Virus record (IMG/VR): IMGVR_UViG_3300028805_000061
Length of the DNA: 64,000 nucleotides
Origin: a virus
Taxonomy: Duplodnaviria; Caudoviricetes
Strand: one strand, 5' to 3'
The translations under genes were made by a program, and so were the position numbers. Every line of letters begins with the position of its first letter. Position 1 is the first letter of the stretch. Positions 29,090 to 63,268 of the stretch are shown here, in pieces. A model generated the notes under the pieces. That model worked only from the letters and a program-made list of their open reading frames with translations. It had not been told where the DNA came from and did no database searches.

Positions 29090-29579
29090 GAAAATAGCTC
29101 AATTTGATATTTCTAGAAAAAAAGTAGATGACCCATTAACACTAACTTTTAGTCAAGACTTAAAGAGACTTGATTCTTTTGGAATTGGAATGACCACTCC
29201 AATGTTATGTGAATTATTATGTGTATCAAAATCAGCTGTTGAGAGATGGATAAGAGAAAAATTGATATTTCCTACTATATTAACTACTAAAGAAGGAATT
29301 AAACGTAGAAAGTTTCGCTATAAAGATATTTTAAGAGGATTCACTTTAAAATGTTTAATGAGTGAATTAGGTTTTAGAAAATTTATTGGGGTAAGGCTTT
29401 TATTAGAAATGACTAATCAAGCTATTACTTCTAAAGATGAGCCAGCAAGTACTATAAATAATGAGAGAATAGATAAATATTTAATGAAAGTACTAAATTA
29501 TAGTGTAGAAGATATAGCTTTAATGAGAATGAATAATAATAACAAAAAGAAAGTTAATAAAGATGACAGCATTGAGTAA
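29079..29579 (+). CDS. MerR-like winged HTH DNA-binding protein
   Basis: MTTPMLCELLCVSKSAVERWIREKLIFP...RRKFRYKDI...L...LGF. Confidence 0.7.
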   Translation: MANKKIAQFDISRKKVDDPLTLTFSQDLKRLDSFGIGMTTPMLCELLCVSKSAVERWIREKLIFPTILTTKEGIKRRKFRYKDILRGFTLKCLMSELGFRKFIGVRLLLEMTNQAITSKDEPASTINNERIDKYLMKVLNYSVEDIALMRMNNNNKKKVNKDDSIE

Positions 29580-29877
29580 TTTAGTATCAAAATTAGATTG
29601 TCCACAGCCTGAATTAGAAAAACTATTTACTAGAGAATATTGTTATGTATTATTAAAAAAGATAGATGACAAGGTATTAAATGCTGTAAAAACATTAGTA
29701 GATAATTATGTTAGAAATGAGTTAAAAGAAAATATTATAAATTATAGAATTTATTCTTATAAAACTTTAGAAGGAATTACTGCTGAAATACTTATTCAAC
29801 CAGAAAATTCCAGTATTATTATTCAATATTTGTTAAATATTTCAGAGAAAAATACTAAACTGGTAAGGATCAGATGA
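29563..29877 (+). CDS. Stand-alone tail-sheath C-terminal-domain-like protein
   Basis: LEKLFTREYCYVL...VKTLVDNYV...IINYRI...ITAEILIQPENSSIII aligns by eye with the recalled T4 gp18 C-terminus (LKTNIGRSSKYRL...FRTETAQYL...IYEYRV...FVATFYIQPARSINYI). Confidence 0.55.
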   Translation: MTALSNLVSKLDCPQPELEKLFTREYCYVLLKKIDDKVLNAVKTLVDNYVRNELKENIINYRIYSYKTLEGITAEILIQPENSSIIIQYLLNISEKNTKLVRIR

Positions 29878-29878
29878 A

Positions 29879-30538
29879 ATGAGTTTACATGCTTTAGATA
29901 GAATATTTCAAAGATATAATCAAAGTTTTAGTTGGACTGATGTAAGAAATATTATAAAAGCTATTAAAAAAGAAAGATGTTATTTTGTTGATGCTGCTAA
30001 TAATGATTGTATAGTTGTTTTAGTGAATTATGAACATATACCATTAAAATTAGTTTATTCCTCTACTAAAGATCATAAAGGAGCTATTGTAACAGCTTTA
30101 CCATTAGATATTGATGAATGGAATTCTAATTTAAGTCAAATTCCATTAGTAAAAAGAGAACAAAAGAAAAAGAAAAGCAAAAAGAAAAAAGGAGATATTA
30201 TGGAATCAAAAGAAACACTTGATAATTTTTTAAATGAGGCTGGAATACCTACACAGGATACATTCCAGGGGTTATTAATGCATATTGAATCAAATGGTTA
30301 TAGTGAAGAAAGACTTGAAACAGCTTATAAAGACTGGGAACTTTATTATGAAAACCCTTCAGCAACAAACTTTAATAGTATAGTATGTCATTTGATTTGT
30401 AAAGCAGATTGTGAAAACTTATATAGATTGGCTAAAGGTTTTCCAGAACATGTAAGAGTATTTATTGAAATGCAATTAGTAGGAAATGCTTCACAGGAAA
30501 AATTGAATGAAGTTGGATTAGGTGAAAATAATGAGTAA
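29879..30538 (+). CDS. Two-domain phage protein with internal start
   Basis: N-terminal HA.DR..QR...IVT domain; C-terminal KAD.ENL.RL.KGFPE domain. Internal SD AAGGAG plus ATG at 30200. Confidence 0.6.
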   Translation: MSLHALDRIFQRYNQSFSWTDVRNIIKAIKKERCYFVDAANNDCIVVLVNYEHIPLKLVYSSTKDHKGAIVTALPLDIDEWNSNLSQIPLVKREQKKKKSKKKKGDIMESKETLDNFLNEAGIPTQDTFQGLLMHIESNGYSEERLETAYKDWELYYENPSATNFNSIVCHLICKADCENLYRLAKGFPEHVRVFIEMQLVGNASQEKLNEVGLGENNE

Positions 30539-31055
30539 AAAAGAAGAACTAAATAAACAAGAAATAATTAAATGGGAAGATGTCAAAAGAGAGAGTTCTG
30601 GTGATTCTCTATATGATTTAAGTTGGCTTGATAATAAAAAAGGAACAAGTTTAGCTAAATTAGAAGGAGAAAATAAATTAACAATAAGAGAAAAATTTCT
30701 TGAAGACTTAAATAAACAATTAACAGAAGGAAGAAATATTAATGAATATAGAGAATTAAAAACTTTTTTAGTTGAACAATCAAGCTATATTAGAAATAAA
30801 ACTAATTTAGATAACTCTGATTTACAAAAATATATTGATAAACTTGATGATTTAATATTTAAAACTAATACAGAGAGATACGAAGAAGCTAAGAAGTTGT
30901 TATCAGATGAAGAACAATTTAAACAGCTTGAAGAATTACAACAAGAATATCATAAAACTGTTCAATCTTTAGCATTAGAAACAGTAGTACAAAAACAAAA
31001 TAGACTTACAACTGCAAAAGTAAGTTTATTAGAAATATTAAGAGGAGAAAAGTAA
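30531..31055 (+). CDS. Coiled-coil hypothetical protein
   Basis: Operon ORF with SD AGGTG. Confidence 0.55.
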   Translation: MSKKEELNKQEIIKWEDVKRESSGDSLYDLSWLDNKKGTSLAKLEGENKLTIREKFLEDLNKQLTEGRNINEYRELKTFLVEQSSYIRNKTNLDNSDLQKYIDKLDDLIFKTNTERYEEAKKLLSDEEQFKQLEELQQEYHKTVQSLALETVVQKQNRLTTAKVSLLEILRGEK

Positions 31056-31064
31056 GAGGTAAAA

Positions 31065-32443: not shown

Positions 32444-32453
32444 GGAGAATAAT

Positions 32454-33713: not shown

Positions 33714-33770
33714 ATATAAATTAATTTCCTTATAAAATATTATATACATATAATTTATAAGGAGATGTAA

Positions 33771-38906: not shown

Positions 38907-39449
38907 ATGAATTATAAAAGTACAATTGGTATTACTTTAAAAGGTATAATATCATTCTTTATATTAGTTTTATTAGCTGATATGCTTGTATATAAAGTGT
39001 TTATAAGTAAAAAACTAAATAAAATGAATTCTACTATTAAAATTATTGAACAATATACAGGTGATCTGTATAAACAATCTAAAGAAGATAGAAACGAAAT
39101 AATACCAGAAAAACAAATATTAGCAAAACATCTATTTCCAGCAAATTATTTAGGAGTATTCAGATTAACATTTTATACACCACATGAATTAGGAGCAAGT
39201 AATGCTAATGCATTAAGAACAGCAACAAGAACTATTCCAAAAGAGGGAAGAACAATAGCAGTAGATCCAAAATTAATTCCAAAAGGTAGTTTAGTATTTA
39301 TAGAAGGCTGGGGATATTATATAGCAGAAGATACTGGATCAGCTATAGAAGGTAAAAGAATAGATATATTCCTTAATAGTCATAGAATGGCAATCCAATT
39401 AGGTAACAAACAACAAGCAAGAGTATATTTATTAAGAAAGGGTGGTTAA
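38907..39449 (+). CDS. Membrane-anchored 3D-domain (MltA-like) cell-wall protein
   Basis: N-terminal TM helix; TIAVDPKLIPKGS.VFIEGWG..IAEDTGSAI.GKRIDIF. Confidence 0.9.
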   Translation: MNYKSTIGITLKGIISFFILVLLADMLVYKVFISKKLNKMNSTIKIIEQYTGDLYKQSKEDRNEIIPEKQILAKHLFPANYLGVFRLTFYTPHELGASNANALRTATRTIPKEGRTIAVDPKLIPKGSLVFIEGWGYYIAEDTGSAIEGKRIDIFLNSHRMAIQLGNKQQARVYLLRKGG

Positions 39450-39605
39450 TAGTGAGACAGCAACTAGATGAAAACTTATTTAGAATAATTGTAAAACCAG
39501 CAATTATTCTGGGGCAAAACTATCCTAATGATAATGTAGATAGTTTAATAGATATACTAATACATGATATATATGAATTAAATATTAAAAGAGAGGATAA
39601 TTAAT

Positions 39606-40106
39606 ATGAAACAACAAATTAAGTTTATAGAAAGACAAATAAAGTCTTTTATAACTATAGGGCAACCTTCAAGTAAAGGTTTTATATATACAAGAGAACT
39701 AATAGAAGATGTATTAAAACAACAGCAACCCTTAATAGATAATAGAACATTATTTGTAACACTAGGATATACTGGAGACAATATTACAGATATTGACTTT
39801 GATAAAGTAGAAGGATTTGTAACTAAAGCTGAAATAACAGAAGATAATAAGGTAACATATACAATACAGTTTTTAGAAAAAGTAGTTAATCTATATCTAT
39901 CTATACATATTCCTATGTTGGTAGAAATACCTATTAAAGCTAAAATAGATACTAAGAATAATATTATTACAGAAATAGAAACTACAAATTACATAGATAT
40001 GATTTTTAAAAATCCCAAAGAAACACTTGATAAAATTACTAAAGCTATAGATCAAATGAAACCTTTAATAAATTCAGTAAAAGGAGAAGCTAATGAAATT
40101 ACATAA
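39606..40106 (+). CDS. Catalytically inactive T4 gp21-like prohead protease homologue
   Basis: PSSKGFIYTRELIEDVLKQ...IDNRTLFVTLGYT...IDFDKVEGFVTKAEITEDNKVTYTIQFL parallels the gp21 N.NGRIY...GEL.HP...I....VSH.I pattern, but the catalytic His and Ser motifs are missing. Confidence 0.55.
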   Translation: MKQQIKFIERQIKSFITIGQPSSKGFIYTRELIEDVLKQQQPLIDNRTLFVTLGYTGDNITDIDFDKVEGFVTKAEITEDNKVTYTIQFLEKVVNLYLSIHIPMLVEIPIKAKIDTKNNIITEIETTNYIDMIFKNPKETLDKITKAIDQMKPLINSVKGEANEIT

Positions 40107-40386
40107 AATAACTACTTTATGGGAATTCTTACCAGTATGTACTAAAGGATATGATGTTCAAGATACTTTTGGCTATTTTCTTTTTACTATTTTAATGGTA
40201 TTTGGAATAGTTATAATAGTATATAAGAATTTATTCTGGTTTTATAATAATTATGGAATCTTTACTATTAAAATAATAAAACAATTGATTATATATTGGC
40301 TTATAATTACTCCACCTACTTTCTATTTTGCAATTAATGAAGTATATAATCAATATGTAAAAGAATTAAATAGAGAGGAAGATTAG
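40093..40386 (+). CDS. Membrane protein (2 TM)
   Basis: Two hydrophobic segments. Confidence 0.55.
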   Translation: MKLHKITTLWEFLPVCTKGYDVQDTFGYFLFTILMVFGIVIIVYKNLFWFYNNYGIFTIKIIKQLIIYWLIITPPTFYFAINEVYNQYVKELNREED

Positions 40387-40432: not shown

Positions 40433-40464
40433 AAACCCTATTAAAATTAATAGGGTTTTCTTTT
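40433..40464 (+). terminator. Intrinsic terminator
   Basis: aaaccctattaa / ttaatagggttt followed by tcttttc. Confidence 0.7.
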
Positions 40465-41933: not shown

Positions 41934-42341
41934 ATGCAACTTACTAATAAAATAAGACAAATATATTTAGATAAAGACTATAATTTAGAAGAAATTCCTA
42001 GATTTGAACCAATAAATGCTTTTAGTTATTTTTATTTAGCACAATCTATTGTGTTTGGTATGGAAGTTTATTTAGCTAAAGTAGTACAAGTAGTAATAGA
42101 TAAGCCAGAATGTAAAGGGGAAGAAAAATTCTGGATTGAATCACAAGTAAATGTTTTTATAAATAAATACTTAATTTGGTTAAGAACTCTAATAGAAGAA
42201 TTCAGTACTAATATAAGTATAAGTAGAATAGCTTCAATGAAACAAATAATGATACAAATAAAATTGAACTTAATATTTAAAGGAGATAAAACTGAATATA
42301 CACACAGTTATTTCTTTATAAGAAAGGTAAATAATAAATGA
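41934..42341 (+). CDS. Hypothetical protein, weak sheath-C-terminal/gp25-like pattern
   Basis: FYLAQSI...YLAKVV...IESQVNVFINKYL...IEEF...IMIQIKL. SD GAGGG. Confidence 0.35.
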   Translation: MQLTNKIRQIYLDKDYNLEEIPRFEPINAFSYFYLAQSIVFGMEVYLAKVVQVVIDKPECKGEEKFWIESQVNVFINKYLIWLRTLIEEFSTNISISRIASMKQIMIQIKLNLIFKGDKTEYTHSYFFIRKVNNK

Positions 42342-42811
42342 AAAAAGAGAATTTTATAATAAGAGAAGAGATATATTTAGATAAGTTTAAGTATAAACAA
42401 GAGAAAATTGATTTTGGTAAAATATTTAAAGAATATTATAAATCTATAGAAAGTGATATTGCTGAGTATTTACAATTCATTATAAATAATAATATATCAG
42501 AAGAACAAACTATAGAAGAACAGGAAAACAAAATAAGAACCTCCTTAGAAGAATATAAGGATAGAATAAGATTTAATATAAATTATCAAATTCCATGCAT
42601 TCAAAATATAGATATAGATACTAAGGTATCTACAATGAGTGGATCACAAGAAGAGAATATAGTAAAATTAAAAGAATTAATAATAGTAATAATTAAAATA
42701 GAATTCTTTCAACCAAACTACCCAATAAGTAAATCTCTTGTAAAAGAAAATATTTATAGAGTTCAATTTAATTATATTACTAATTTGAAATCTAATAAGG
42801 GTTGGCATTAG
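42338..42811 (+). CDS. Hypothetical protein, weak sheath-C-terminal/gp25-like pattern
   Basis: KSIESDIAEYLQFII...ENKIRTSLEEY...IIKIEFFQP...IYRVQF. Confidence 0.35.
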   Translation: MKKENFIIREEIYLDKFKYKQEKIDFGKIFKEYYKSIESDIAEYLQFIINNNISEEQTIEEQENKIRTSLEEYKDRIRFNINYQIPCIQNIDIDTKVSTMSGSQEENIVKLKELIIVIIKIEFFQPNYPISKSLVKENIYRVQFNYITNLKSNKGWH

Positions 42812-42933
42812 GAATATTCTATTTAATAGATATTTATATAAATGTAAACTCTATAAATATAATACTAATTCTATCCATCACCCCTTTGGGGGTTTTCTTT
42901 TGAGAAAATATATCAAAAAATATATTAATAAAT

Positions 42934-43380: not shown

Positions 43381-43474
43381 AGGTAGGAATCACTTCCTAC
43401 CTTCTTTCTAGATTTTTAAACTCCGTAATACTATTCATTTCCCAATCTATTTAAACAGATTGGGAATTTTCTTT
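43381..43474 (+). terminator. Two tandem hairpins/terminators
   Basis: aggtaggaa-tcac-ttcctacct (43381-43402) and ttcccaatct...agattgggaa (43439-43466), each followed by a T-rich tract. Confidence 0.65.
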
Positions 43475-44459: not shown

Positions 44460-45702
44460 AAGTTTTCTTAAACCAGAACAAAATAAACTTTCCAGAAAAT
44501 TAAAGAAAAAAGCTAGAAATTTATTTAGAGGTGATAATGGTCCAGTAATAGTGACTAATCTTACCCAATTTTTGAATATTTATAAACCAGATTCAGAAAC
44601 ATATAAAGATACTATAGAAAGATAAGGAGAAGGTAATGAATAATTTAGATCCACAAATACATAACTTAGAAGTAAATATTGATAATCAACCATATTCAGA
44701 TAAAGATTATACTTTATTAGCTATAACAAAATTAATATGGGCTAATCAAAAAGAATTATTTCAAAGAGTAGAATCTTTAGAGAATAGAATAATTGCTGTA
44801 GAATAACTGCTGTAGAAAATATGCAGAAGGTATAAAATATAAAGATTATGAATATGTATAGGTAGATAAAACCTATTAAGGACAAGACAATGAATATTAT
44901 ATTTGCCAAACAGAATTCAAACACTATTGTATTTAGGACACCTCTTTTAGTTCCTAAATTTTATACTACAGTAAATGATTATGTAGAATCAAATCTCCCA
45001 TTACCTCTTTTATTGCACAAGAGTATAATTCAAGCACTTCGGCACTCTCCTTGTGTAAGACTTTTACCAGAAAAAATGTTTGACAAAGAATTTGAGGGAG
45101 AACCAGTTATGTGTTTAGAGGCTACTAATGAAAAAGTATAAAAGAGAAGACTGTTTTTATTTTACTGGTGTATATTGTGAAAATACACATGAATATGAAT
45201 GTGCAAGAGGACATTGTGTTTGTCATGCTTGTTTTGAATATATGAATTGGTGGCAAAGGTTTTGTATGAGAATAGAAGTAGAACTTTTACAAAGAGGAAT
45301 TTGGCTAGATTCTATTTTTCATAAAAGAAAATTATTTATTAAAAGGAAAAGAAAATGAAAATAATACTTAATATATCAGATAAAGTAATTGAAAATTATA
45401 GGAATGAATGGTTTAGTGAAGCAGTTGAACCTTATAAACAAATTCTAGAAGATATAGCCGAAATAATAGCTGAAAGAATTGATTGCATGTATGAAATAGA
45501 TAAAAATTCTAAAAATATAATTAATTATAAATAGGGAGATAAATAATGCCCAGAATAGATAATATATATAAATGTTGTAATTTTAATTGGAATGAAAATC
45601 TTAATAAAACTTGTAACAAAGATAATAAATTCCAAAGATGTATTTTATTAGATGACAACTATTATTGTTATAATTATGAAAATAAAGAAAAAGAGAGAAA
45701 AG

Positions 45703-46113
45703 ATGTATCACATTAAAGAAGATATTGCAGAAATTGTTAAAGATCTACCTCCTAATTTTACAGTAAAACCCATAAAAGAGAAAATATTACAAAAGTGGGG
45801 ATATTGTAGTAATGGTTGGATATCAGAATGTTTAAAAAAATTGGGATATGCTTATAATAGGTCAAGTAAATATTGGTATAAAAAACCAATTATTATAGAC
45901 AGTATTACAATTCAAGCTCATGAGAATATAGTAAAAGGATATAAAGATAAAATAGGTTCTATTATTTCAAGTTTACTAAATAAAGATTACTGTAGTAAAT
46001 GTAAGAAGAAAACCCTTTGTAAATATTATACTGGGTCAAGATTTTCACCTTGTAAAATTTGTATAGGTCATAAAAATTTAATAGAAGAAATAGTAAACTT
46101 AGCAAAAATTTAA
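45703..46113 (+). CDS. Winged-HTH + Cys/His zinc-binding protein, paralogue 1
   Basis: FTVK...SNGWISECLKKLGYAYNRSSKYW; KDKIG...DYCSKCKKK..CK.Y...C..HK.LI.EIV. Confidence 0.6.
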   Translation: MYHIKEDIAEIVKDLPPNFTVKPIKEKILQKWGYCSNGWISECLKKLGYAYNRSSKYWYKKPIIIDSITIQAHENIVKGYKDKIGSIISSLLNKDYCSKCKKKTLCKYYTGSRFSPCKICIGHKNLIEEIVNLAKI

Positions 46114-46683: not shown

Positions 46684-47175
46684 TTGATGCATAAATTTGT
46701 AAAAGATGCAAAAGATATAGTAGAAGAAACAGTAAAAGAATTAGAAAAAATAGGTTGTAATGAATTTACAGCTAAACAATTAAGAACACATTTTTATGAA
46801 TCAGTACAAATTAGTTCTGGATGGTTAACTGAATGTCTAAATAGTATAGGTTATTATTATAATAGAGTAAAAAGAGTATGGACAAAAAGACCAGTTACAC
46901 AAATTACTAAAACTACTTATATTAAAGAAGAAGTATATCAAAAGGTAAAATTAAAATTAGATAAATTAAAAGATAAAATAGGGGAAATTTTAACAGGAAT
47001 AGCTAATGATGATTACTGTTCTAGATGTAAAAAGAAAATTACTTGTAAACATTATAATTTAGGAGAAAGTTTTATAATTAGATTATTTGCTAGAAAAGAT
47101 ATATGTAAAGCACATAAAGAATTAATAAATGAGATAGTTGATTTAAGTGGGATTTTATTAGAAAATGAACAATAA
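46684..47175 (+). CDS. Winged-HTH + Cys/His zinc-binding protein, paralogue 2
   Basis: FTAK...SSGWLTECLNSIGYYYNRVKRVW; KDKIG...DYCSRCKKK..CK.Y...C..HK.LI.EIV. Confidence 0.6.
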   Translation: MMHKFVKDAKDIVEETVKELEKIGCNEFTAKQLRTHFYESVQISSGWLTECLNSIGYYYNRVKRVWTKRPVTQITKTTYIKEEVYQKVKLKLDKLKDKIGEILTGIANDDYCSRCKKKITCKHYNLGESFIIRLFARKDICKAHKELINEIVDLSGILLENEQ

Positions 47176-47218: not shown

Positions 47219-47491
47219 ATGAACCCAACAATAAATCTAGAACAATATGTTAAAAATATTATAAAATATCATATTAATGATTTCGGTCTAGTTGAATTAG
47301 GTAGATTAAGATATGAACTAGATTTATATTTAGCAGCAGGACCAAATAATCTAGAATTTTGCCCTTGTGAAATTTCAGATGAGGGAGAATTAAAAATTTT
47401 ATTTAAAGATAAATTAAAAGATTGTTGGCATAGATTAGATATTACTATTCCAGCAGTAATAGCTGAACAAGAAAGGTTAGAGAATGAATAA
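47219..47491 (+). CDS. Small protein, possible sheath-C-terminal-like domain
   Basis: LEQYVKNIIKYHIND....LGRLRYELDLYL...GELKILFK...LDITI. Confidence 0.35.
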   Translation: MNPTINLEQYVKNIIKYHINDFGLVELGRLRYELDLYLAAGPNNLEFCPCEISDEGELKILFKDKLKDCWHRLDITIPAVIAEQERLENE

Positions 47492-48134: not shown

Positions 48135-48629
48135 ATGAGTAATGAGAATATTAAAAGTTTAATTAAAGAGATTATTGAGAAAAGAAAAGAAGCTTTTAGT
48201 ACACAAATTATAGCAGATGAACTTACTACTAGAAATATTACAGCTTATAAAAATACTATAACTAAAATACTAAAGGAATTAGGTTATTCTTTTGATAAAA
48301 GCAGTAAAACTTGGAAATGTAAAAAAGAAAAATCTTTAGAATTACCAGAAACAATAAAAGTGTTTACTCCACATATAATTACTTATATTTTTAATGGAAC
48401 TAAATTAGAAAAAATGGATCATCACTTCCTGGGAGTATTCTATAAAAAAGAAGATGCAGAAGCACATTTGAGATTACAAATAGATTTTTATGCAAAAATA
48501 GCTAAAACTATAACTGATAATAATCCTGAAGCTAAATTCAACATTAGTGTCCACTTATATGAAATGGATGCACATAAATCAGATAAAGGATTTATATTTG
48601 CTACAGAATTTATGGGAGAAAATAAATAA
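48135..48629 (+). CDS. Winged-HTH paralogue 3 with a different C-terminal domain
   Basis: FSTQIIADEL...ITKILKELGYSFDKSSKTW; FLGVFYKKEDAE domain. Confidence 0.55.
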   Translation: MSNENIKSLIKEIIEKRKEAFSTQIIADELTTRNITAYKNTITKILKELGYSFDKSSKTWKCKKEKSLELPETIKVFTPHIITYIFNGTKLEKMDHHFLGVFYKKEDAEAHLRLQIDFYAKIAKTITDNNPEAKFNISVHLYEMDAHKSDKGFIFATEFMGENK

Positions 48630-49732
48630 TGAATAATGAAGAATCACTAGATAAAATGCTTGAAGAATTTTCACAAGAAGAATTAAATTCTAAATCTGAT
48701 AAAGAGAAAATAGCTGATTTAATTGTAGAAAATCAAATGCTAGAACATAAGATGATGGTTTTAGCAGCATTAGCTATAGGGGCTTCTAAAGTACTTGATT
48801 ATTATGCAAGTTCTAGTCTAGCTAAACCCACATTTACTATGGTGGATTATTCAAAAGAAGACCAACCCTTATATAGTAAAGCTAAATATAAAGTAACAGA
48901 AGTATTAGATACAAAAGGTCCAGATAAAGAATTTTTAGTAGGAATGAATATGTATGATCTAAATATAGATACTGAAACTGCACAAAAAACTTCACAACAA
49001 ATTTTAGAAAAAATTAAAGAATTAGGTATTATTATAGAAGAAAAATATGAAGAACCTACAGAAGAATCTTTCGAATCAAAAGATAAACAGTTACACTTAG
49101 ACTTTAATGAAGGTGAAATAGATGAGAACTAAATGGGGTAAAAATTATAATAAACCAACAAAAAGCTTTATTAAAAATCAAGCTATGAATAAATTTAAAG
49201 AGCGTTTAAAGCAAATTCTTATTGCTACATTGGATGTACCTTGTGGGTATATAGATGTTTCTACACATTCAAAAGCTGAAGAAGAATTATTATATAAAGA
49301 AAAAGTTGAACCAGTAAGAAAACAAGTTTTAAATGATTATGGTGAGATAACTAAAGATTTACCAAGAAAAGAGAAAAAGAGACTAAGAAAGACCCATCAG
49401 GAGATTATAGAGATATGGTAAAAGACAATTGTCATGATTGTAAACATAGAGAATTAGGTATTAATTATACAAATTGTAAAAGAAAATGCTCTTATAAATA
49501 TAAAATGCAAAGATATAGATCTAATAAAGATATAGAAGAGGTAGTTTGTAATCTATATAAAGATGTAAATAATTATTTAAGAGATTGGGTTAAAGAGAAT
49601 TTTCAGACTAGTGAACAAATAAAAGAGAATCAAGAATTATGTGAAACTTTATTTGATTTTGGGGAATTTGTTCTTAGAAAAATAATTCCTTATTCACCTA
49701 AAATGGATTTTATGAATCATGAATTAATGTAA
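48629..49732 (+). CDS. Cluster of hypothetical proteins (48629-49132, 49122-49421, 49415-49732)
   Basis: Coupled plus-strand ORFs. Confidence 0.55.
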
Positions 49733-49747: not shown

Positions 49748-50116
49748 ATGAGAAAAGTTGAAATTGGAACAAGTAATTATACTGAAGTATTTGCTATAGG
49801 TGCTAAAATGTATAATGCTAATCATTATTATGAAGTAAGACAAACACCCAGTGAAGGAGCAACTATTTCTGATAAAGGGATTTATGCTAAAATCAAATTT
49901 CAAGAAGGCCCTATTAAAGAACGTGGTATAAATGGTTGTCACAATGAAGATTTAATTGCAATAGTAATAGATAGACTTCAAAGTTTTCAAGAAAGTTCTT
50001 ATGAATGTAAAGAAAATGCCATGGCAATAACAAAACTTGAAGAAGCTTTACTTTGGTTAAGAAAAAGAACTGATGATAGAATCAAAAGAAATGTAGAAGG
50101 AACAAGTCAGTTATGA
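49748..50116 (+). CDS. tad1: Tad1-family anti-defence cyclic-nucleotide sponge
   Basis: ANHYY...IKFQEGPIKERGINGCHNEDLIAIVIDRLQSFQ...CKENAMAITKLEEALLWLRKRTDDRIKRNVEGT matches the Tad1 pattern as recalled (IKFQ.G...DLL.IV.DRL.SFQ...REN.ALT.EEALMW..R..DR..R.V.GT). Confidence 0.85.
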   Translation: MRKVEIGTSNYTEVFAIGAKMYNANHYYEVRQTPSEGATISDKGIYAKIKFQEGPIKERGINGCHNEDLIAIVIDRLQSFQESSYECKENAMAITKLEEALLWLRKRTDDRIKRNVEGTSQL

Positions 50117-50326: not shown

Positions 50327-51022
50327 ATGGAAGTAATACATAAGAAAACTCAAAATAGATACTATATTGATGATGTTGTAATTGATTCAACCAATGAATT
50401 AGAACCAGAAAAACAAGTAAAAATTCTTTATAGTAATGATAAAGCCGAAAGATTTGTTAGAGAAGCTCATGAGTTTATCGAAAAATTCTATATACCACAT
50501 GGATTTAATATTTTAAGTAAAGCTTGTGAATTAGCAATGCAAGATGTAGAAGAATTTCATAATAGAGTTGAATCAGTAAATAATATACAACATAATAAAA
50601 TAGAAGAAGGTAAACTTACTTGGGAAGATGTTAAAGAATGTGACTGGAGCAATTCTTCTTGTAATGAATGTCAATGCGAAAAAGAGTATATAGGTGAAAT
50701 GATAGATGTAGATGTTTATAATACTTATAAACAAACAGTAGAAAATAGGTGGTATGCTCCACTATCAATAATTAAACTTTGTGCTTATACTCAATTGAAA
50801 GAATTGTTTACTATAAGATGTTCTGATTTTGATTTAGTTAAGAAAGATTATGATAATGCAACTAGTGAATATTTCTTATTAGGTTACAGGTATTTAAGTG
50901 ATTTTCGCAAAAATCCTTGTCAAGTATGTAAAATACCTTTTAAAGTATTTAATAAGATTCTAGATGCAATAAATACTAGAGTAGAAAAAGGAGAAGATGA
51001 TGACCAATTCTTTGATGACTAA
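50327..51022 (+). CDS. DUF1653-like N-terminal domain protein
   Basis: VIHKKTQNRY...IDSTN...ILYS....FVREAHEF.EKF. SD AGGAGG before ATG 50327. Confidence 0.55.
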   Translation: MEVIHKKTQNRYYIDDVVIDSTNELEPEKQVKILYSNDKAERFVREAHEFIEKFYIPHGFNILSKACELAMQDVEEFHNRVESVNNIQHNKIEEGKLTWEDVKECDWSNSSCNECQCEKEYIGEMIDVDVYNTYKQTVENRWYAPLSIIKLCAYTQLKELFTIRCSDFDLVKKDYDNATSEYFLLGYRYLSDFRKNPCQVCKIPFKVFNKILDAINTRVEKGEDDDQFFDD

Positions 51023-51311
51023 TAGCGAAGATGTTCAATCAGAAATTTTTAAACAATTAGAAGAAATTCTAACTCCTTATTACAAAGAATTAATAAACGA
51101 GTCTAATTGGAGGGTATTATCATATAGTATAATAAATAAATTTGATTTTTGGCAATGGGAAAATTCTATATTAAATTATAAAATAATATGTAATAATAAT
51201 TGTTCAGATCTTATTTTAGAATATGACATACCCTTTTCTGAAGGATGGTTTCTTTATTGTCATTTAAGAAAAGGTCATTTAATGTTAAAATTTGTACCAA
51301 AAGAATTCTAA
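50997..51311 (+). CDS. Stand-alone tail-sheath C-terminal-domain-like protein
   Basis: IFKQLEEILTPYYKELINESNWRVLSYSIINKFDFWQWENSILNYKIICNNN parallels the sheath i...l..y.fE.n...w..i...i...l......I.dy.viCd..N pattern. Confidence 0.5.
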   Translation: MMTNSLMTNSEDVQSEIFKQLEEILTPYYKELINESNWRVLSYSIINKFDFWQWENSILNYKIICNNNCSDLILEYDIPFSEGWFLYCHLRKGHLMLKFVPKEF

Positions 51312-51725: not shown

Positions 51726-51872
51726 ATGGCAGTATTTGAATACGACACTCTAGATTTACCTGGAACAGCAGCTCTTGATCCAGAAAAAACGCTTAAAGAT
51801 ATTGGAGTTACTTTAACTAAAGATGATATAGTTGAAGCTGGTGGTGTAGTAGAAGATAATCAAGAAGGTTAA
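51726..51872 (+). CDS. 48-aa protein paralogous to the N-terminus of the next gene
   Basis: Not in the ORF track. SD AAGGAG; MAVFEYDTLDLPGTAALDPEKTLKDIGVTLTKDDIVEAGGVVEDNQEG. Confidence 0.8.
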   Translation: MAVFEYDTLDLPGTAALDPEKTLKDIGVTLTKDDIVEAGGVVEDNQEG

Positions 51873-51877
51873 GAGAT

Positions 51878-53023
51878 ATGATACTAGGATATAATACATT
51901 GAATCTGCCTAATATCGATGCTCTTGATCCAGAAAAAACGCTTAAAGATATCGGAGTTACTTTAACTAAACAGGATCTGATAGATGCTGGAGGTAAAGTA
52001 AAACCCGATGAACCAGAACCACCCTATGTGGAAGTAGAATCTTTAGAAGATTTAAGTAATTTAATTTCTGGAGAAGAAGCAAAAATATATGCAGAAATAA
52101 AACAAGAATTAGCACTTGCTGCTAATGATAGAATAGTTATTCCAGCTGGTAAAGAAGTAAATCTAAAGATAGATAATAAAATCTCTTGTACTAAAACTGG
52201 TTTCTATGTTGAAGATGGCGGTACTTTGAACTTATCTGGAGAAGGTACTATACAAACTTCAAATAAAAGTACTTCTGGAGCAATGATAGAAGTTAAAGGG
52301 GCAAATGCTATTGTAAATATAGAAGATGTTACACTTGATGCTATTACAGTAAATGGTAAATCTACAAATAATCAAGCTTATGGGATTTATGCAATGGATG
52401 ATGCTTCAATTAATTTTAAATCTGGTACTATTAAATGTGCTTATGGATCTTGTATAAGTACAAATAATACTACTGAAGGAGCTACTGTAATTAATGTAGA
52501 AGGTGGGGAATTATTATGTGATGGTTCTTATGCAATTTACCTCCCTTCACAATCTACAGTAAATATTAAAGGCGATGCTAAAGTACAAGGTATTAATGCT
52601 AGAATGGGCAAATTTAATATTAGTGAAAATGCTCAAATACTACCTACAACCATTACAGAAGCTGATTATGATAATATTGGAAGTAATTTCAATACATCAG
52701 GCTGTGTATGGTTAGGTGATACAATAGCAATAATGGCTGGTACATATACTGATGTAGATGGTACTGAATGTATTTTCAATATTAAAGATAATGCAACGGT
52801 TACAAGCAACTTTAGATCAGCAATTGGTATTTATGAAGTAGATACTAAAGAAGCTCAAGTAGTTACATTCAATGTAGCTAATGCAGCAAATGTTACTACT
52901 AGTGATCAAGGATTTGAAAATATTACAGTTTATAATCATGAATATATAGCTGAACAAGCTCAAGCTGCTGGTAAAACCTACAATCCTTCTGTTCAATCTG
53001 ATGTTACTGTCAATGTAGCTTAG
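51878..53023 (+). CDS. Probable virion decoration/adhesin protein: N-terminal anchor peptide + beta-helix-like domain
   Basis: N-terminal about 40 aa shared with the upstream ORF, Pro/Glu linker, then repetitive beta-rich GTLNLSG.G.I / VINVEGGEL / YAIYLP domain. Confidence 0.6.
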   Translation: MILGYNTLNLPNIDALDPEKTLKDIGVTLTKQDLIDAGGKVKPDEPEPPYVEVESLEDLSNLISGEEAKIYAEIKQELALAANDRIVIPAGKEVNLKIDNKISCTKTGFYVEDGGTLNLSGEGTIQTSNKSTSGAMIEVKGANAIVNIEDVTLDAITVNGKSTNNQAYGIYAMDDASINFKSGTIKCAYGSCISTNNTTEGATVINVEGGELLCDGSYAIYLPSQSTVNIKGDAKVQGINARMGKFNISENAQILPTTITEADYDNIGSNFNTSGCVWLGDTIAIMAGTYTDVDGTECIFNIKDNATVTSNFRSAIGIYEVDTKEAQVVTFNVANAANVTTSDQGFENITVYNHEYIAEQAQAAGKTYNPSVQSDVTVNVA

Positions 53024-53135: not shown

Positions 53136-54376
53136 ATGACTAAAGATAATATATGTCCTTTTAGAAATTATAATATTATGTTACCAGGACCTCCTATACC
53201 TAATAATTATTGTGATGTTACTCATAGTTATTGTATATGGCCTTGTGAATATGATAGATGTGATCACTATAAAAAAGCTATTAGGGCTAGAGAAATGTTA
53301 GAGAATATTAAGAAAGAAAACAGTAATGCTTAGAAAAAGATTACAAATACTAGAAAAATCTACAACATTAAAAAGTATAGAAGAGATTGATGATTTTATT
53401 AAAAAAGTGATTACTACTACAAATGGTTGGTTTGATCCAGAAACACTATGGGAAGTAGAAAACCCATATAAAGTAATGAATAGATTACATGAATTAGGAC
53501 TAAAAGTTGATACTTATAAGAAAAAAGATAATAAATTTTCCTTAATAGATTTATCTGTACCTTACAAATTAGTAGAAGTATTAGAAGATGATACTTATAT
53601 AAGTGTTTGTCAATATAATAAAGATAATAAAGATGACAATTTTATGCAAGATTTATTTTTATCACATTGGTTAGATAGACAATGTTATTTTTCTAAGATT
53701 GGACCTCACAATGTTTGCTTTATTTGTAACAAAGGAGGAACTTTAAAAGCTTTTCCAGCAAGTTATATAGTAAAAATAGGATTACAAAATCCTAAAATAT
53801 TTGTAAGTACAAAAGAAGGGATAGAAGAAAAGTATAGAAAGGTTTGTTAAATGAAATTAAGACGATTAACAGATAAAATAGGAATTTTTATTTGGGTTAT
53901 AGGTATATTTGTTGTACTATTAACTATAGTGGACATAGTATTTAAACCATTTTCACAATTTTGTATAATCCCTATTCAAGTATTAGGAGTAGCTATACAG
54001 TTGTTATTAATTATAGTAGGGTGTAGAGCTTTTGATAAAAGATGGAAGTTTTCTTCAAAAGTAAGTGATGCTGTATTAACTTGTTATTTTGTTCAAAATG
54101 CTATGCCTACATTAAAAGCTATAGAAGACTATAAAGAGGAGTTAAGAAAGAAGAAAGATGAATAAGTATAAAAATTTAGAGATGTATAAAAAATGTTTTG
54201 TAGAATTTGTTAACAGTTCTGGTAAAAAGTTAGCATTATCTACTCATAATCAAAATAAATATCCTTATTTATTAATTGAATCAGGAGAAGGTAAATATAA
54301 TATTGTAGGAAGAGTAACTAAACCAGAAAAATTAGTAGAATGGTTGAAAGGAGCTAGTTTTAATGAACAAGGGTAA
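53136..54376 (+). CDS. Cluster of small hypothetical proteins (53136-53333, 53326-53850, 53851-54165 membrane, 54158-54376)
   Basis: Coupled plus-strand ORFs. Confidence 0.55.
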
Positions 54377-54767
54377 TAGTCCAGAGAATTATATATTTGT
54401 ACCAGGTACAAAAGCTTATGCTATTCATTTAGGGAGAAGAGATTTAAAAGAAAAATGTAAAGCTTGTAATGGTAAAGGTGAAATAATTTTAGATGGGAAA
54501 AGTTATACTTGTCCAGCTTGTTCTGGTTGGGGCTTCCATCATGTTAAGACACCTGATGAATGGTTACTTACTTATGAAATGCCTAAGGAAATTACTCAGA
54601 TAAATATTAGAGAAAAAGAAATACATTATTTTTTCGGTTGTAATGGTTATAATCAAACTGATGTTTTCCTCACTAGAAAAGAAGCTATAAAAGAAATAAA
54701 TAAAAGAAATAAAAAATTGCAACAAATTCAAGATGCAAAGGAGGCACTAAAAGTATATGAAAACTAA
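54363..54767 (+). CDS. DnaJ-type CxxCxGxG zinc-finger protein
   Basis: CKACNGKG...CPACSGWG. Confidence 0.7.
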   Translation: MNKGNSPENYIFVPGTKAYAIHLGRRDLKEKCKACNGKGEIILDGKSYTCPACSGWGFHHVKTPDEWLLTYEMPKEITQINIREKEIHYFFGCNGYNQTDVFLTRKEAIKEINKRNKKLQQIQDAKEALKVYEN

Positions 54768-55418: not shown

Positions 55419-55835
55419 ATGTATAAAATATATACTAGTTATTTTAGACACAAACAAGTAAAGAAATGGCAACAACCTTCTAGTGATAGACCTTTATTAA
55501 TTCCTATTTGTAGAGGACTAACTAGACTAGATACAGATTTATATTATAGTTGGTATAGGGAATTAGCACCCTCAGAGGAATTACTTACCAGATACAATAA
55601 TGTAAGAATCAAATGCCCTAAAATAAGAAAATGGTTTACTGAGAAATATTTAGAAGAGCTTGATGAGCTTAGATATAATGGACTCTTAGAAAAATTTGTA
55701 AAAGAATTTCAGCATTTAGTAAAATATAATGATGTGATTTTACTATGTTATGAAAAAAGTTCAGAATTCTGTCATAGACATATTTTAGCTTCTTATCTGA
55801 AGAAATATTACAATTTAGATATCCTAGAATATTAA
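55419..55835 (+). CDS. DUF488 family protein
   Basis: KIYTSYF, ELAPS.ELL, LLCYEK..EFCHRHILA. Confidence 0.85.
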   Translation: MYKIYTSYFRHKQVKKWQQPSSDRPLLIPICRGLTRLDTDLYYSWYRELAPSEELLTRYNNVRIKCPKIRKWFTEKYLEELDELRYNGLLEKFVKEFQHLVKYNDVILLCYEKSSEFCHRHILASYLKKYYNLDILEY

Positions 55836-55873
55836 ATTTATTTATAAAATATTTTAAAGGTTAAGGGAAATAA

Positions 55874-56302: not shown

Positions 56303-56310
56303 GAGAAATA

Positions 56311-57827: not shown

Positions 57828-57846
57828 AAAGTATAGGGAGAATTTC

Positions 57847-58383: not shown

Positions 58384-58416
58384 ATAAAAAGAGGAAGTAG
58401 ATAATTATCTACTTCC
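58382..58416 (-). terminator. Terminator of the minus-strand RCC1 gene
   Basis: Perfect 24-bp palindrome ggaagtagataattatctacttcc (58393-58416) with the T-tract on the minus strand. Confidence 0.7.
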
Positions 58417-58450
58417 AAAGAAGTTTGGTAAAATATTTTGAAGTTCCTCC

Positions 58451-59080
58451 TTAATTTCGCTTTGTGAAGGTTAAAATATCTGTTGTATCACCATTACCCT
58501 GCTGACTATAGCGATTATATCCACAACCATAAAGTTCACCATCGTTAGTTAAGTACCATGTTGTTGTATTTGAACAAGCAAAATCTTTTACATTACTTGC
58601 TCTTTGAGTAAACCTTGTAACATCTGTTGTATCGCCTGAACCTTGTTGACCGTAATTATTCCATCCACAACCATAAAGTTCACCATCGTTAGTTAGATAC
58701 CATGTAACGCTACTTGAACAAGCAACTTGTGCTACATTACTTGCTCTTTGAGTAAAATGTCTAACACTTGATGTATTTCCTGAACCTTGTTGGCCATAGT
58801 TATTACCTCCACAACCATATAATTCACCGTTGTTAGTTAGATACCATGTTGTTATATCTTGGCCAATAATTTGTGCTACGTTACTTGCACGTTGGGTAAA
58901 GGTTAAAACATTCGCTGAACTTCCTGAACCTTGTTGATAATAGTAACTATATCCACAACCATAAAGTTTACCATCGTTAGTTACATACCAAGTTGTATAA
59001 TCTGAGCAAGCAAAATCTTTTACACCACCGGCAATTTTTCGAAATCCTCCAAGGGGTTCCAATTTTGTTTTTATACCCAT
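58451..59080 (-). CDS. RCC1/BLIP-II-like repeat protein (4 repeats), paralogue of 19543-20763
   Basis: Same N-terminus MGIKTKLEPLGGF.KIAGGV, four 48-aa repeats, same end TFTKR. SD AGGAGGTG. Confidence 0.9.
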   Translation of the reverse strand: MGIKTKLEPLGGFRKIAGGVKDFACSDYTTWYVTNDGKLYGCGYSYYYQQGSGSSANVLTFTQRASNVAQIIGQDITTWYLTNNGELYGCGGNNYGQQGSGNTSSVRHFTQRASNVAQVACSSSVTWYLTNDGELYGCGWNNYGQQGSGDTTDVTRFTQRASNVKDFACSNTTTWYLTNDGELYGCGYNRYSQQGNGDTTDILTFTKRN

Positions 59081-59236
59081 AATAATTCACCTCCTAAAAT
59101 ATTTTATCAACATAAAAATACCAGTTAAAAAAAATCCTATATAGGACACTCGAAAAAGCTTTATCTTTTTAACAAAAAGAAAACATTTTTTTCATTTCTA
59201 TATATACTTATAAATAATTCAAATAGGAGAAAAGAA

Positions 59237-60037: not shown

Positions 60038-60200
60038 AGGAGGGTAAACAATGTCAAATGAACAAAATAATTTAAACATTAGAGAAATTGTAAAAGAAGT
60101 TGTTAAAGAAGAAATTAAACCCGAATTAGAAAAAATGAAACAACAACAAACTCAACATTTACAAGAAGGTAATATGTATTTGAATGAATAAAGGAATTTT

Positions 60201-61401
60201 ATGGAAGAAAAACAATTAGTTCCAGTACAAGAAAGAACTCTTAGGATATATAAACCCTTTATAAGATGTGCTACTTGTGTTAGAAATATAGATGGACAAA
60301 AAATGCAACATGGTTTTTATTCTAAGACATATTGTAATCAATTTAAAGAAACGAGACAAGATCAATACAGTGCCGATTATAATATAGAAAAAGATAGAAA
60401 ACTTGCACAACATTGTAAATATTATTTACCAGAAATAGGTACTATTGCTGATTTAACATATCTTGAACCTTACGAAATAGTAGATGATATGTTTAAATTA
60501 GATAAAGAACATGCTAAAAATTTAAGTGATTTATTTGGTAATAAGTTAAATAATTAGATTTTAATATATTTAATAATATTTATATAAATAATAATGATTA
60601 AATATAAGGAGTTAATTTATAATGACTATTTTTAATGGCTTACTAATAATAGCAACTATTTTATTTGTAGATCTTATTATAAACTATTTTTTAATAAATT
60701 ATAGTAATAAAAAATTTGAGAAATATCAAAATAAAATAGATGAATTAGAAAAAGATAATAGAAAATGTTTTGAACAAATTTCAGGTTTGTTAAATACTTC
60801 TGGTAAAACTATAAAATTAATTCAAAAATTTAAAAATCAATCAGGAAATAAATTTCAGAAAATAGATGAAGATTTAAAATCTATTATGAGAATGCATAAT
60901 GATTTAGTAGATATAGTTTATGAAAGTTTTGCTAATGTATATTGTGATCTTAATGAAGAAGATTGTTCTATTTGTGAATATTATGATAGATGTTCTAAAA
61001 GAGATTCCAGTAAAGAAAATGGATTTATAACTTATACAAAAGAACATCCCTCTGAAGATTCTTGTATAGCTTGTAATAGACCTATTAGTTATTCTTCAAT
61101 AATAATAGACCCAAATGATAAAGATTATTTGACTAAGTTAAAATCTACAATGTATAATTCAGGAGTACCAGAACAAGTAATTAGTCATTATTTAACATAT
61201 ATTAAGGCTCTATTAGAAAAATTGAATCTAGAAGGAAAATATATGGAAATTGCTTGGAATTTTAAAGAAACTGATGTAGTCAAAGGGGCTGGAATTATTA
61301 CTAATAAACCTATAGATAAAAATGAAATAGATAAAGAAAAACTAATAGATCCTAATTCAAAAATAGTTAAATCTTTAAATAAACTATATAAACAAGATTG
61401 A
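60201..61401 (+). CDS. Two hypothetical Cys-containing proteins (60201-60557; 60622-61401, TM plus coiled coil)
   Basis: Plus-strand ORFs with SD sites. Confidence 0.55.
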
Positions 61402-61439
61402 TTTATCATTACACTAAAATTCAGAATTCCAGCAATAAT

Positions 61440-61472
61440 AAAACCCTCTATAATATTAAAGGGTTTTTCTTT
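61440..61472 (+). terminator. Intrinsic terminator
   Basis: aaaaccct...agggtttt followed by tcttt. Confidence 0.65.
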
Positions 61473-61525
61473 GTGTTAACTATAAAAAATTCATAAATAC
61501 ATATATAAATTATAAGGAGAAATAA

Positions 61526-62101
61526 ATGACTTTAGAAGAAAATTTTAGTCTTGAACCTGATGAAATTCTAAAAGCTATAGAATTTTCAGTAGAGTCAAGA
61601 ATGAATTTAGAAAGTGATGAACAAGTTACAATAATAACACATCCTTTAACAATAAAAGCTATTAAAATAGGAATTGCTCAAGGTAAAATATTTAAAAATA
61701 TTTATTCAAGAATAATATTTTCTCCAGATAGTAATAGTAAACTTAGTGATTTAGTAATTATTCCAGACCATTTGATAGATGAAGTAGTTCAAGAAGAAAT
61801 AAAAAATCATTTAAATGTTGATAATGAAGTAAAAGAGAAATTGAAAATATTAAATGAAAAAATGGATATCCCTGAAGAAATATTAAATAGAATATCTACT
61901 CTTGAAGACAAAGACCTTACTAATGAAGAATTACAATTAAAATGTGAAATTCAAAATCTAATGTTAGATGTAGGAATGAATATTGATTTACATTTTTCTA
62001 ATACAGATAGTAAAGAACAAAAAGTAAATGAAATAGTAGATAAATTATTAAAAAATAATAAAATACAAAAAGTAGGATTAGAAGGAATTAATAATGACTA
62101 A
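61526..62101 (+). CDS. Hypothetical protein
   Basis: SD AAGGAG. TIITHPLTIKAI segment is weakly like a capsid A-domain. Confidence 0.55.
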   Translation: MTLEENFSLEPDEILKAIEFSVESRMNLESDEQVTIITHPLTIKAIKIGIAQGKIFKNIYSRIIFSPDSNSKLSDLVIIPDHLIDEVVQEEIKNHLNVDNEVKEKLKILNEKMDIPEEILNRISTLEDKDLTNEELQLKCEIQNLMLDVGMNIDLHFSNTDSKEQKVNEIVDKLLKNNKIQKVGLEGINND

Positions 62102-62687
62102 GAAAAGAAAGAGTGAACTTAAAATAGGTTATAATGAACTAAAAAATGGTTGCCCTACTGGAGAAAATGTTTTAGATTTAAAGAACACACCAATCCCTAT
62201 AGAATCACTAAAAGTATTAATGACTGGAGACTCTAATCAAAAGTTTAGAGTATTATCAAAGAAGATAAATAGGGAAAATGTTAAACTAGTATTAAAACAT
62301 AGAGAAACCAATGAAAAACTAAAAATAGTTGCACCAATAGAATTTTTAGAATTTCACAAAATCCCTTATAAAAATCCCAAAATACCTACTAATAAATTAA
62401 TTGAAGGTGTTTTACAAGATAGAGTAAGAAATTGGGAATGTGAAGTAATAATTAAAGATCTATCACAAGAATATGACTTAGTTATTCTAATTGATATAGA
62501 TTCACAAAAAAGAATAGCTTGTAAAGTTCCTATAAAAGAGATTGAAAAAACTAAATTATATATAGAAAAATGTAAAACTTATAAACAAGCTAATTATTAT
62601 GATTATAATAAAATAAATATATGGAGGGAGAATGAATGGCAAAGAGAAGTAATGACTCGCCTAAACTTATTAAAATTAACCCGTTAA
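62094..62687 (+). CDS. Hypothetical protein
   Basis: Coupled ORF. Confidence 0.55.
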   Translation: MTKKRKSELKIGYNELKNGCPTGENVLDLKNTPIPIESLKVLMTGDSNQKFRVLSKKINRENVKLVLKHRETNEKLKIVAPIEFLEFHKIPYKNPKIPTNKLIEGVLQDRVRNWECEVIIKDLSQEYDLVILIDIDSQKRIACKVPIKEIEKTKLYIEKCKTYKQANYYDYNKINIWRENEWQREVMTRLNLLKLTR

Positions 62688-63268
62688 ATAATTCAGATGA
62701 AAGTTTGATTGCTATTGCAATTCTTAATGCTTTAATTATACTAAGAGCTAAAGAAAACAATTTAATAAAAATTCCAGAAAGAAAAGAATTAACTAAATTA
62801 CTAAAAAATGCAAAGTTAGATAATATATTAAAAGCTTTAGATGAGGTTAATGGTATTAAAATAAAAAAAGTATTAGGAGTAGAAGATACATCTCTCACTG
62901 GAATTGTTTATATAAACCATCCTTTAAAGGTATTACCTTGTTTAGTATATAGAAACCCCTCTATAAAAGACGGTCAAATAAAATTAGTTAATTCTGGTTT
63001 AGGAGATGATGAAGTTTTAATAAGTGAACAACTCTTTAATGAAAAATTGTTTGTAGATAATATATTTGCTTATCAGATATTTCTAAATACAGGCACTAAA
63101 GAATTTTTTAAAGATAAAGAATTAAGTTGTAATGATTGTAATCATTATAGTTTTAATTCAGAAGGAGAAGATATTTGTTTATATGATGATATGAACATAA
63201 AAGATTGTAATCAATGTTGTAATAAATTTATTGATTGTTTTAAATGGAGAATACCGAAAGGAGAATAA
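62636..63268 (+). CDS. Hypothetical protein with Cys-rich C-terminus (possible capsid-fragment-like N-domain)
   Basis: SD GGGAG; VYRNPSIKDGQIKLVNSG; CNDCNHY...C...C..F tail. Confidence 0.55.
   Translation: MAKRSNDSPKLIKINPLNNSDESLIAIAILNALIILRAKENNLIKIPERKELTKLLKNAKLDNILKALDEVNGIKIKKVLGVEDTSLTGIVYINHPLKVLPCLVYRNPSIKDGQIKLVNSGLGDDEVLISEQLFNEKLFVDNIFAYQIFLNTGTKEFFKDKELSCNDCNHYSFNSEGEDICLYDDMNIKDCNQCCNKFIDCFKWRIPKGE

Follow-up and report, generated by a model that had tools for sequence, protein, structure and literature searches.

The question addressed here is whether a phage keeps stripped copies of its own virion-assembly proteins among its accessory genes, and what such copies might do. 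It is raised by the IMG/VR virus record IMGVR_UViG_3300028805_000061 (Caudoviricetes), a phage genome of 144,741 bp rated complete by CheckV, of which a stretch of 64 kb (bases 11849-75848; hereafter the window) was analysed. The first-pass annotation of the window had singled out eight short open reading frames (ORFs) as eroded pieces of tail-sheath, prohead-protease and capsid proteins that might serve as decoys for defence sensors. All eight ORFs were recovered, with the coordinates given below, in the + strand small-gene block. For two of them, designated by their first base as ORFs 39606 and 29563, the best explanation is that they derive from virion-assembly domains as diverged copies that were exapted, lie in an accessory block and serve purely as binding modules, a reading that we regard as probable. 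Structure models were used for these two ORFs, while the other six were compared by sequence only. The two main subjects are, in window coordinates:

39606-40106, + strand: 166-amino-acid (aa) mini-paralogue of the T4 gp21-type (Peptidase_S77) prohead protease, predicted to be catalytically dead
29563-29877, + strand: 104-aa protein resembling a free-standing gp25 / sheath C-terminal ('handshake') domain

Intact virion genes had been expected elsewhere in the genome, and the protease, sheath, gp25 and capsid genes were indeed all found intact downstream of the window, where baseplate and fibre genes are likewise located:

genome 91335-92837: prohead protease, S77-like, 500 aa (phrog_207, 3e-21; Peptidase_S77, 6e-5)
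genome 101687-103666: tail sheath, 659 aa (phrog_23, 9e-62; PF17482 and PF04984)
genome 103927-105393: Gp23-type capsid protein (PF07068, 1e-16)
genome 119204-119569: gp25, 121 aa, with a D-P-R-I motif

ORF 39606, a prohead-protease paralogue without the catalytic His and Ser

The model of ORF 39606 comprises the gp21/assemblin fold, which it shares with the T4 gp21 protease (S77, PF03420, PDB 5JBL), and the whole protease core is kept. The protein belongs to a family of approximately 25 homologues of 160-167 aa, which show 54-87% identity and many invariant residues. A search of 1.84 billion representative sequences with the profile of this family revealed five small proteins that are distantly related (P0051-P0055, 135-166 aa). 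Among these, P0055 matched Peptidase_S77 above the Pfam cut-off (2e-9), phrog_207 (8e-15) and the sequence of 5JBL (2e-4), and P0051 and P0054 also matched phrog_207, which is the PHROG of the real protease of this phage. ORF 39606 itself gave no direct match to PF03420 or phrog_207 at E <= 1, and the link to the family is a transitive one via P0051, P0054 and P0055. A pairwise alignment of ORF 39606 with the phage's own protease resulted in an E-value of 0.003, in the same register as had been described before. When every small ORF was compared with every ORF of the genome by BLASTP, one relevant faint match was obtained, which was that of ORF 39606 to the real protease (E 0.33). In addition, Smith-Waterman scores were compared with those of shuffled controls (100 or 300 shuffles), and ORF 39606 against the protease showed a z of 3.4, a score reached by none of 100 shuffles. 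A tail-tube-like identity was also considered for ORF 39606 and was rejected, no tube protein being present among the top structural matches. The prohead protease gp21 and tail tubes are said to share ancestry.

While the fold is preserved, the active site is not. The catalytic His of the real enzyme (H97, in 'TIGHD') corresponds to Tyr55 in ORF 39606 and to Phe in its homologues, and the nucleophile Ser (S155, in 'ISTRA') corresponds to Pro109 in the BLASTP alignment or to Glu107 in the MAFFT alignment. In the family alignment (19 sequences), neither a His nor a Cys is invariant, and the catalytic His is also missing from the five distant relatives P0051-P0055. Asp131 is nearly invariant and lies near the place expected for the catalytic Asp, in a part where the alignment is ambiguous. 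Since the catalytic His and Ser are both missing, the protein should not be able to cut, and judged by its sequence ORF 39606 is a proteolytically inactive gp21-like protein. The original call, which had described it as a protease-dead gp21-like protein, was correct in view of the predicted fold, the S77 link via the distant relatives and the loss of His and Ser.

Besides the replacement of His and Ser and the lack of a direct Pfam match, ORF 39606 differs from T4 gp21 in the missing C-terminal targeting/scaffold part and in its position outside the head module. With 166 aa compared to the 500 aa of the phage's real enzyme, it stops after one C-terminal helix and lacks the long C-terminal coiled-coil part, and its gene lies approximately 40 kb upstream of that of the real protease. 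A tblastn search with ORF 39606 against 50,697 phage records found nothing, and a locus search of IMG/VR with its alignment found no relative. A co-folding prediction of ORF 39606 with the domain of the phage's own protease (residues 30-235) gave a score of 0.01, which speaks neither for nor against pairing.

Proteins of a similar kind are SPN3US gp117, 201phi2-1 gp206 and PhiPA3 gp143 (PMC5694885), which, likened by description, are small, truncated and presumably inactive second copies away from the real gene. ORF 39606 agrees with gp117 in being a short second copy (~135-166 aa) that lacks the full triad and lies away from the true protease. The two are not identical in their losses, since gp117 retains Ser and Asp at the aligned positions while in ORF 39606 the catalytic His and Ser are both lost, and the lineage in the present case is a 145-kb ruminant-gut myovirus. 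Small dead copies of prohead proteases have been noted since 2017, without a known role, and ORF 39606 adds a new phage lineage to them.

ORF 29563, a probable free-standing handshake domain

For ORF 29563, 17 homologues of 104-108 aa were found (54-70% identity), in which the beta-rich C-terminal half is strongly conserved. The AlphaFold2 model (predicted local distance difference test, pLDDT, of 93) shows four helices followed by a four-stranded antiparallel sheet; it is compact over residues 3-103 and has no N- or C-terminal linker arms. Foldseek searches with ORF 29563 gave weak E-values, with recurring matches to gp25, baseplate wedge, 'sheath initiation protein', tail sheath and IraD/Gp25-like proteins; small uncharacterised phage proteins, namely T4-like cd.3 and a DUF7355 protein, were also among the matches. 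In a PDB-wide structure search performed without Foldseek, the gp25-like 2ia7, TssE and IraD led and sheath followed (7.1-6.4), and an inositol-monophosphatase domain scored 6.2 in the same search. Among the ESM Atlas clusters, Sheath_initiator/DUF2634, GPW_gp25 or Phage_sheath_1C accounted for eight of ten rows, with TM scores of 0.61-0.70 over 91-98 residues, and a low-confidence Atlas model had given like matches earlier. The best BLASTP alignment of ORF 29563 in the genome covered residues 571-644 of the phage's own sheath, inside the PF17482 domain (E 0.017), and the shuffle test against the sheath resulted in a z of 4.3 (0/100). Based on its model, ORF 29563 very probably has a true handshake-domain fold. 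This is in line with the description of ORF 29563 as sheath-C-domain-like, in the gp25/sheath fold of the model and, tentatively, in the weak match to the sheath C-domain of the phage itself.

Another explanation would be that four helices and a four-stranded sheet arose by convergence, and that ORF 29563 is an unrelated small regulator which partners the gene that it overlaps:

29079-29579, + strand: HTH_17/MerR-like gene (Pfam HTH_17, 1.7e-4), whose end overlaps the start of ORF 29563 by 17 nt

This pair is located just downstream of the polymerase module, and the overlap with the helix-turn-helix (HTH) gene recurs in a 126-kb relative (L014/L015), where a 182-aa gene is followed by a 108-aa gene. 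Against convergence, a single superfamily provides the top-ranked matches in each of four independent libraries, and nothing in the genome other than the C-terminal end of the sheath C-domain matches ORF 29563 in sequence above chance. Convergence is accordingly considered unlikely.

Compared to T4 gp25, the type VI secretion system (T6SS) protein TssE and the sheath C-domain (PF04965, PF10934, PF17482), the handshake fold is shared over nearly the whole of ORF 29563. The differences are the lack of the EPRI motif, of the linker arms, of a hidden Markov model (HMM) match and of a position in the baseplate or tail module. Separate genes for gp25 and sheath are present in the genome. The EPRI motif is common to gp25, TssE and IraD (PMC6546054), and it is absent from the 17-sequence alignment of ORF 29563. 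Since both the linker arms and the EPRI motif are lacking, ORF 29563 should be able neither to polymerise nor to start a sheath. A precedent for a free-standing handshake domain is IraD, an Escherichia coli anti-adaptor that blocks RssB (PDB 6OD1). IraD comprises EPRI and a long N-terminal tail and shows no sequence similarity to ORF 29563 (PMC6546054), and its partner RssB is a proteobacterial protein. Together with this precedent and the structural look-alikes among uncharacterised phage proteins, ORF 29563 represents a case that has been less noticed than that of the dead proteases.

The possibility that both ORFs are decaying relics of old duplications without a current function was considered as well. 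The lost catalytic residues and arms and the almost erased likeness to the parent genes would fit with decay. The reading frames, however, are intact, the models are confident and compact, many residues are invariant at 54-87% identity, and the ratio of nonsynonymous to synonymous substitution rates (dN/dS) is about 0.3. For ORFs 39606 and 29563 compared to their relatives this ratio lies at approximately 0.3-0.4, with synonymous sites near saturation. In view of these values, a lack of function is very improbable.

The six other ORFs

The remaining six flagged ORFs had been claimed as sheath-like or as possible capsid fragments. For comparison, a syntenic stretch of 20.5 kb from a related phage (L009) was used:

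50997-51311, + strand: conserved 104-aa ORF, claimed to be sheath-like (49-83% identity in seven sequences, i.e. six homologues and L009)
42338-42811, + strand: 157-aa ORF, for which the weak sheath claim found no support (L009 homologue with 28% identity)
41934-42341, + strand: 135-aa ORF, weak sheath claim, unsupported
47219-47491, + strand: 90-aa ORF, for which the weak sheath claim found no support (L009 homologue with 56% identity)
61526-62101, + strand: 191-aa ORF, 'possible capsid A-domain', unsupported (no Gp23/capsid match)
62636-63268, + strand: 210-aa ORF, 'possible capsid A-domain', unsupported (no match)

In Pfam and PHROG, none of the eight flagged ORFs matched sheath, gp25, prohead-protease or capsid families at E <= 1. 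The same families were absent among the best 25 families per library in a scan of 87 ORFs. In a six-frame search of the whole genome, PF17482 and PF07068 matched the true sheath and capsid genes only, and PF10934 matched nothing. The genome search with PF03420 also found nothing, the true protease included, and is hence uninformative. Profile searches of PDB sequences with the alignments of ORFs 39606, 29563 and 50997 resulted in chance matches only. Because ORFs 39606 and 29563 were equally missed, this negative result has little weight for ORF 50997.

Among the six, ORF 50997 shows by eye a layout of helices followed by strands like that of ORF 29563, and the ESM Atlas contains no model of it. 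None of its homologues showed a recurring family (Pfam, E <= 10), and hhalign of its family against that of ORF 29563 gave a probability of 1%. The direct comparison of the two was co-linear and faint, with a z of 2.2 and a score that is reached by 11 of 300 shuffles. ORF 42338 showed a z of 3.4 against the sheath C-domain (1/300), the aligned part being located earlier in the C-domain than that of ORF 29563. With this exception, all comparisons of the six ORFs with the phage's own sheath or capsid remained at z <= 2.1. ORF 47219 showed z <= 0.5 against sheath, gp25 and ORF 29563, and ORFs 61526 and 62636 were below the shuffle mean against the phage's own capsid protein (z -0.4 and -0.6). The syntenic stretch of L009 showed no counterpart of ORF 41934. 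Altogether, as far as can be told from sequence comparison, these six are ordinary accessory genes in which a likeness to virion parts was not detected. Such negatives do not refute the proposed folds, since the same tools also miss ORF 29563. The claim of virion-like mini-ORFs can thus be upheld for ORFs 39606 and 29563 on the basis of their predicted folds, and it has no sequence support for the other six.

One of the six is located close to a gene with a known anti-defence homology:

49748-50116, + strand: homologue of Tad1 (Thoeris anti-defence 1; phmmer E 8.2e-31 to PDB 8kbb, residues 7-122)

Tad1 acts as a sponge for Thoeris signals and some CBASS signals. The protein encoded here aligns end to end with Tad1 (PDB 8KBB) and nothing notable differs. 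The Pfam family Acb2_Tad1_hairpin gave 19.2 bits, which is below the cut-off of 27, and the gene is 85% identical in a related phage. Two genes are located between Tad1 and ORF 50997. Both the match and this position confirm the earlier observation of a Tad1-like gene two genes away from a flagged ORF.

These data bear on the proposal of a full arsenal of virion mimics, according to which most of the eight ORFs would be eroded sheath, protease or capsid domains that are expressed early and saturate sensors or poison co-infecting phages. In its favour, both modelled ORFs agree with the call made by eye, the sequence methods are blind even for ORF 29563, and ORF 50997 combines a layout and a faint similarity to ORF 29563 with a place two genes from Tad1. 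These points are opposed by the complete lack of HMM, BLAST and hhalign support for six ORFs, by the scores below the shuffle mean of ORFs 61526 and 62636 against the capsid and by the missing counterpart of ORF 41934 in L009. An arsenal of this extent is therefore held to be improbable.

Possible functions

Related phages of the ruminant gut have kept both proteins, and the block also contains an intact Tad1 gene. Because the folds are preserved, cutting or interlocking is lost and both proteins are conserved, binding is the most economical function, and ORFs 39606 and 29563 would act purely by binding.

For ORF 39606, a possible target is provided by cyclic-oligonucleotide-based antiphage signalling systems (CBASS), in which cleavage of an exposed activation loop by the T4 gp21 prohead protease turns the CD-NTase on (PMC12991175). 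T4 gp21 was sufficient for the activation of CBASS and its active site was required (PMC12991175), and phages escaping CBASS include prohead-protease mutants according to earlier work cited in PMC13728456. Since CBASS senses the activity of the prohead protease, the decoy idea is plausible for ORF 39606. The protein may occupy protease targets without cleaving them, including the protease-sensitive activation loops of CBASS CD-NTases, and occupation of these loops would weaken a defence that reads prohead-protease activity. Such a shielding of protease targets or CD-NTase loops is the most likely role for ORF 39606, although it can be put forward only tentatively. The next most likely role, also a tentative one, would be a restraint of the phage's own protease, and the remaining probability falls to other roles. 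ORF 29563 may either cap the strands of a sheath-type partner or bind a host regulator as IraD does, and neither of these is preferred.

A further possibility would be that both proteins are morphogenetic helpers. In this case, the role of ORF 39606 would be to control or chaperone the prohead protease of the phage itself, or it would belong to the prohead core as a minor protein, and ORF 29563 would delay the polymerisation of the sheath or aid the baseplate. Pseudoenzymes commonly regulate active paralogues, and this general knowledge speaks for such helpers. In the same direction, SPN3US gp117 has been discussed in the context of the evolution of head assembly (PMC5694885), and both proteins have been retained along with the phage lineage. 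On the other hand, a distance of 50-60 kb separates both genes from the head and tail modules, and they lie amid replication and accessory genes and at the same positions in relatives. ORF 39606 also has no counterpart of the scaffold-like C-terminal region found in the real protease. A role as helpers is therefore regarded as not very likely.

It was also considered whether the phage uses stripped copies of assembly proteins as immune shields alongside Tad1, with ORF 50997 and others perhaps included. In this reading, ORF 39606 would occupy CD-NTase loops or capture free protease, and head maturation would thereby escape being 'seen', and the arm-less ORF 29563 would cap sheath-type strands of a sensor, of a tailocin or T6SS, or of a competing myovirus. 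This extension to a common defence-related purpose is rather doubtful. With the DSR2 inhibitor DSAD1 it has only the concept in common, namely a phage protein that blocks the sensor of a structural protein. To our knowledge, DSAD1 is not a copy of its trigger.

Returning to the explanation of ORFs 39606 and 29563 as exapted binding modules, several observations weigh against it. Six of the eight flagged ORFs are without any support. ORF 29563 has no Pfam match (PF04965, PF10934), and hhalign against the phage's own sheath C-domain gave a probability of approximately 1%. ORF 39606 shares its unit with a cell-wall enzyme of the 3D-domain type and with a hydrophobic ORF, and Tad1 is not adjacent to it. 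Giant phages are known to carry small cryptic paralogues of the protease (PMC5694885), and the gp25 fold also serves unrelated regulation, as for example in IraD (PMC6546054); these two points speak for exapted binding modules and at the same time qualify the decoy idea, no role being known for such mini-proteases. What remains of the original idea of non-functional virion look-alikes outside the structural modules is ORF 39606, which has neither the catalytic His nor the catalytic Ser, and ORF 29563, which has no arms, whereas an arsenal of eight members is not established as a system.

The interest of the locus lies mainly in the hypothesis that connects the dead protease with CBASS and that can now be tested. 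The 2026 report on CBASS and the prohead protease (PMC12991175) provides a first concrete and testable job for such proteins, which would be that of a non-cutting competitor. If either of the two proteins blocks a defence system, they would point to a class of anti-defence proteins built from the phage's own sensed parts. If neither does, two conserved protein families would be left that are marked by their predicted fold and by a loss of function.

Gene neighbourhood and genome

The surroundings of ORF 39606 comprise a 3D-domain gene and a 50-aa ORF upstream and a hydrophobic 97-aa ORF downstream, and the order of 3D gene, small ORF and pseudo-protease is conserved in related phage stretches (L009 and L010):

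38907-39449, + strand: 3D-domain (MltA/RlpA-like) protein that opens the 38907-40386 unit and has a hydrophobic segment at its N terminus (Pfam 3D, 3.6e-19)
40433-40458, + strand: terminator-like hairpin at the end of the 38907-40386 unit, with an 11-pair stem followed by a T-run

In the scanned region, seven terminator-like hairpins were found in total compared to 2.9 expected. Three of them on the + strand are located inside 600 bp (42880-42893, 43381-43402 and 43439-43466) and indicate borders of transcription units in the small-gene block. A scan for sigma-70 promoters gave 143 sites compared to 150 expected and is uninformative in this AT-rich DNA. A sheep-gut metatranscriptome contained two exact short contigs (42643-42897 and 48987-49137), which could originate from transcription or from carried-over DNA. 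The further pieces were mostly low-complexity cross-matches and none covered ORF 39606 or 29563, which says nothing on their expression.

The GC content is approximately 26%, and almost every gene of the window is located on the + strand. Near-identical DNA is present in sheep and goat gut metagenomes of several studies, and syntenic relatives of 126-142 kb were found in ENA assemblies. A megablast search with 29-64 kb of the window against the 50,697 phage records gave no match, and the capsid protein showed only 36% identity to Rhizobium phages. Based on these values and on the tblastn result, no cultured relative is assumed.

The first part of the window (1-27 kb) contains replication genes, i.e. 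a DnaB-type helicase, a split family-A DNA polymerase, a UvsX-like recombinase and an SbcC-like protein. The family-A DNA polymerase (phrog_17) is matched by 2197-3552 and by 23886-26168, approximately 20 kb apart, which suggests a split or duplicated polymerase. The part from 27 to 64 kb represents the accessory block with about 87 mostly small ORFs. Its few family matches are a PNKP-like phosphatase, DnaJ-domain, 3D-domain, DUF7168/DUF2786 and DUF488 proteins, NrdG and RCC1 repeats.

Outside the window, homing/HNH endonuclease-like genes are found directly after the capsid gene (genome 105463-106848) and approximately 750 bp downstream of the prohead-protease gene (genome 93585-94496). Within the accessory block, three paralogues of 153-164 aa (45652-46113, 46684-47175 and 48135-48629) indicate a local expansion of a gene family. 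The first two show 36% identity (E 1e-23 to 1e-25) and have a Cys-rich C-terminal part in common, while the third matches the N-terminal ~55 residues of the other two (E 1e-4). A 48-aa ORF (51726-51872) duplicates the first ~41 residues of the next gene (51878-53023, 381 aa) with 66% identity (E 1e-14), and this short form has a counterpart in the related phage as well (L009 19664-19789). RCC1-repeat proteins are encoded at 19543-20763 (+) and 58451-59080 (-), the latter being among the very few minus-strand genes of the window. Furthermore, a protein of the DUF488 'active N3' subclade (PF22751, 4e-15) is located at 55419-55835 amid the accessory genes, and a zinc-ribbon protein (Anti-TRAP/DnaJ CXXCXGXG-like) at 54363-54767 has a paralogue near the genome end (genome 142333-142824) with 32% identity and an E-value of 5e-7.

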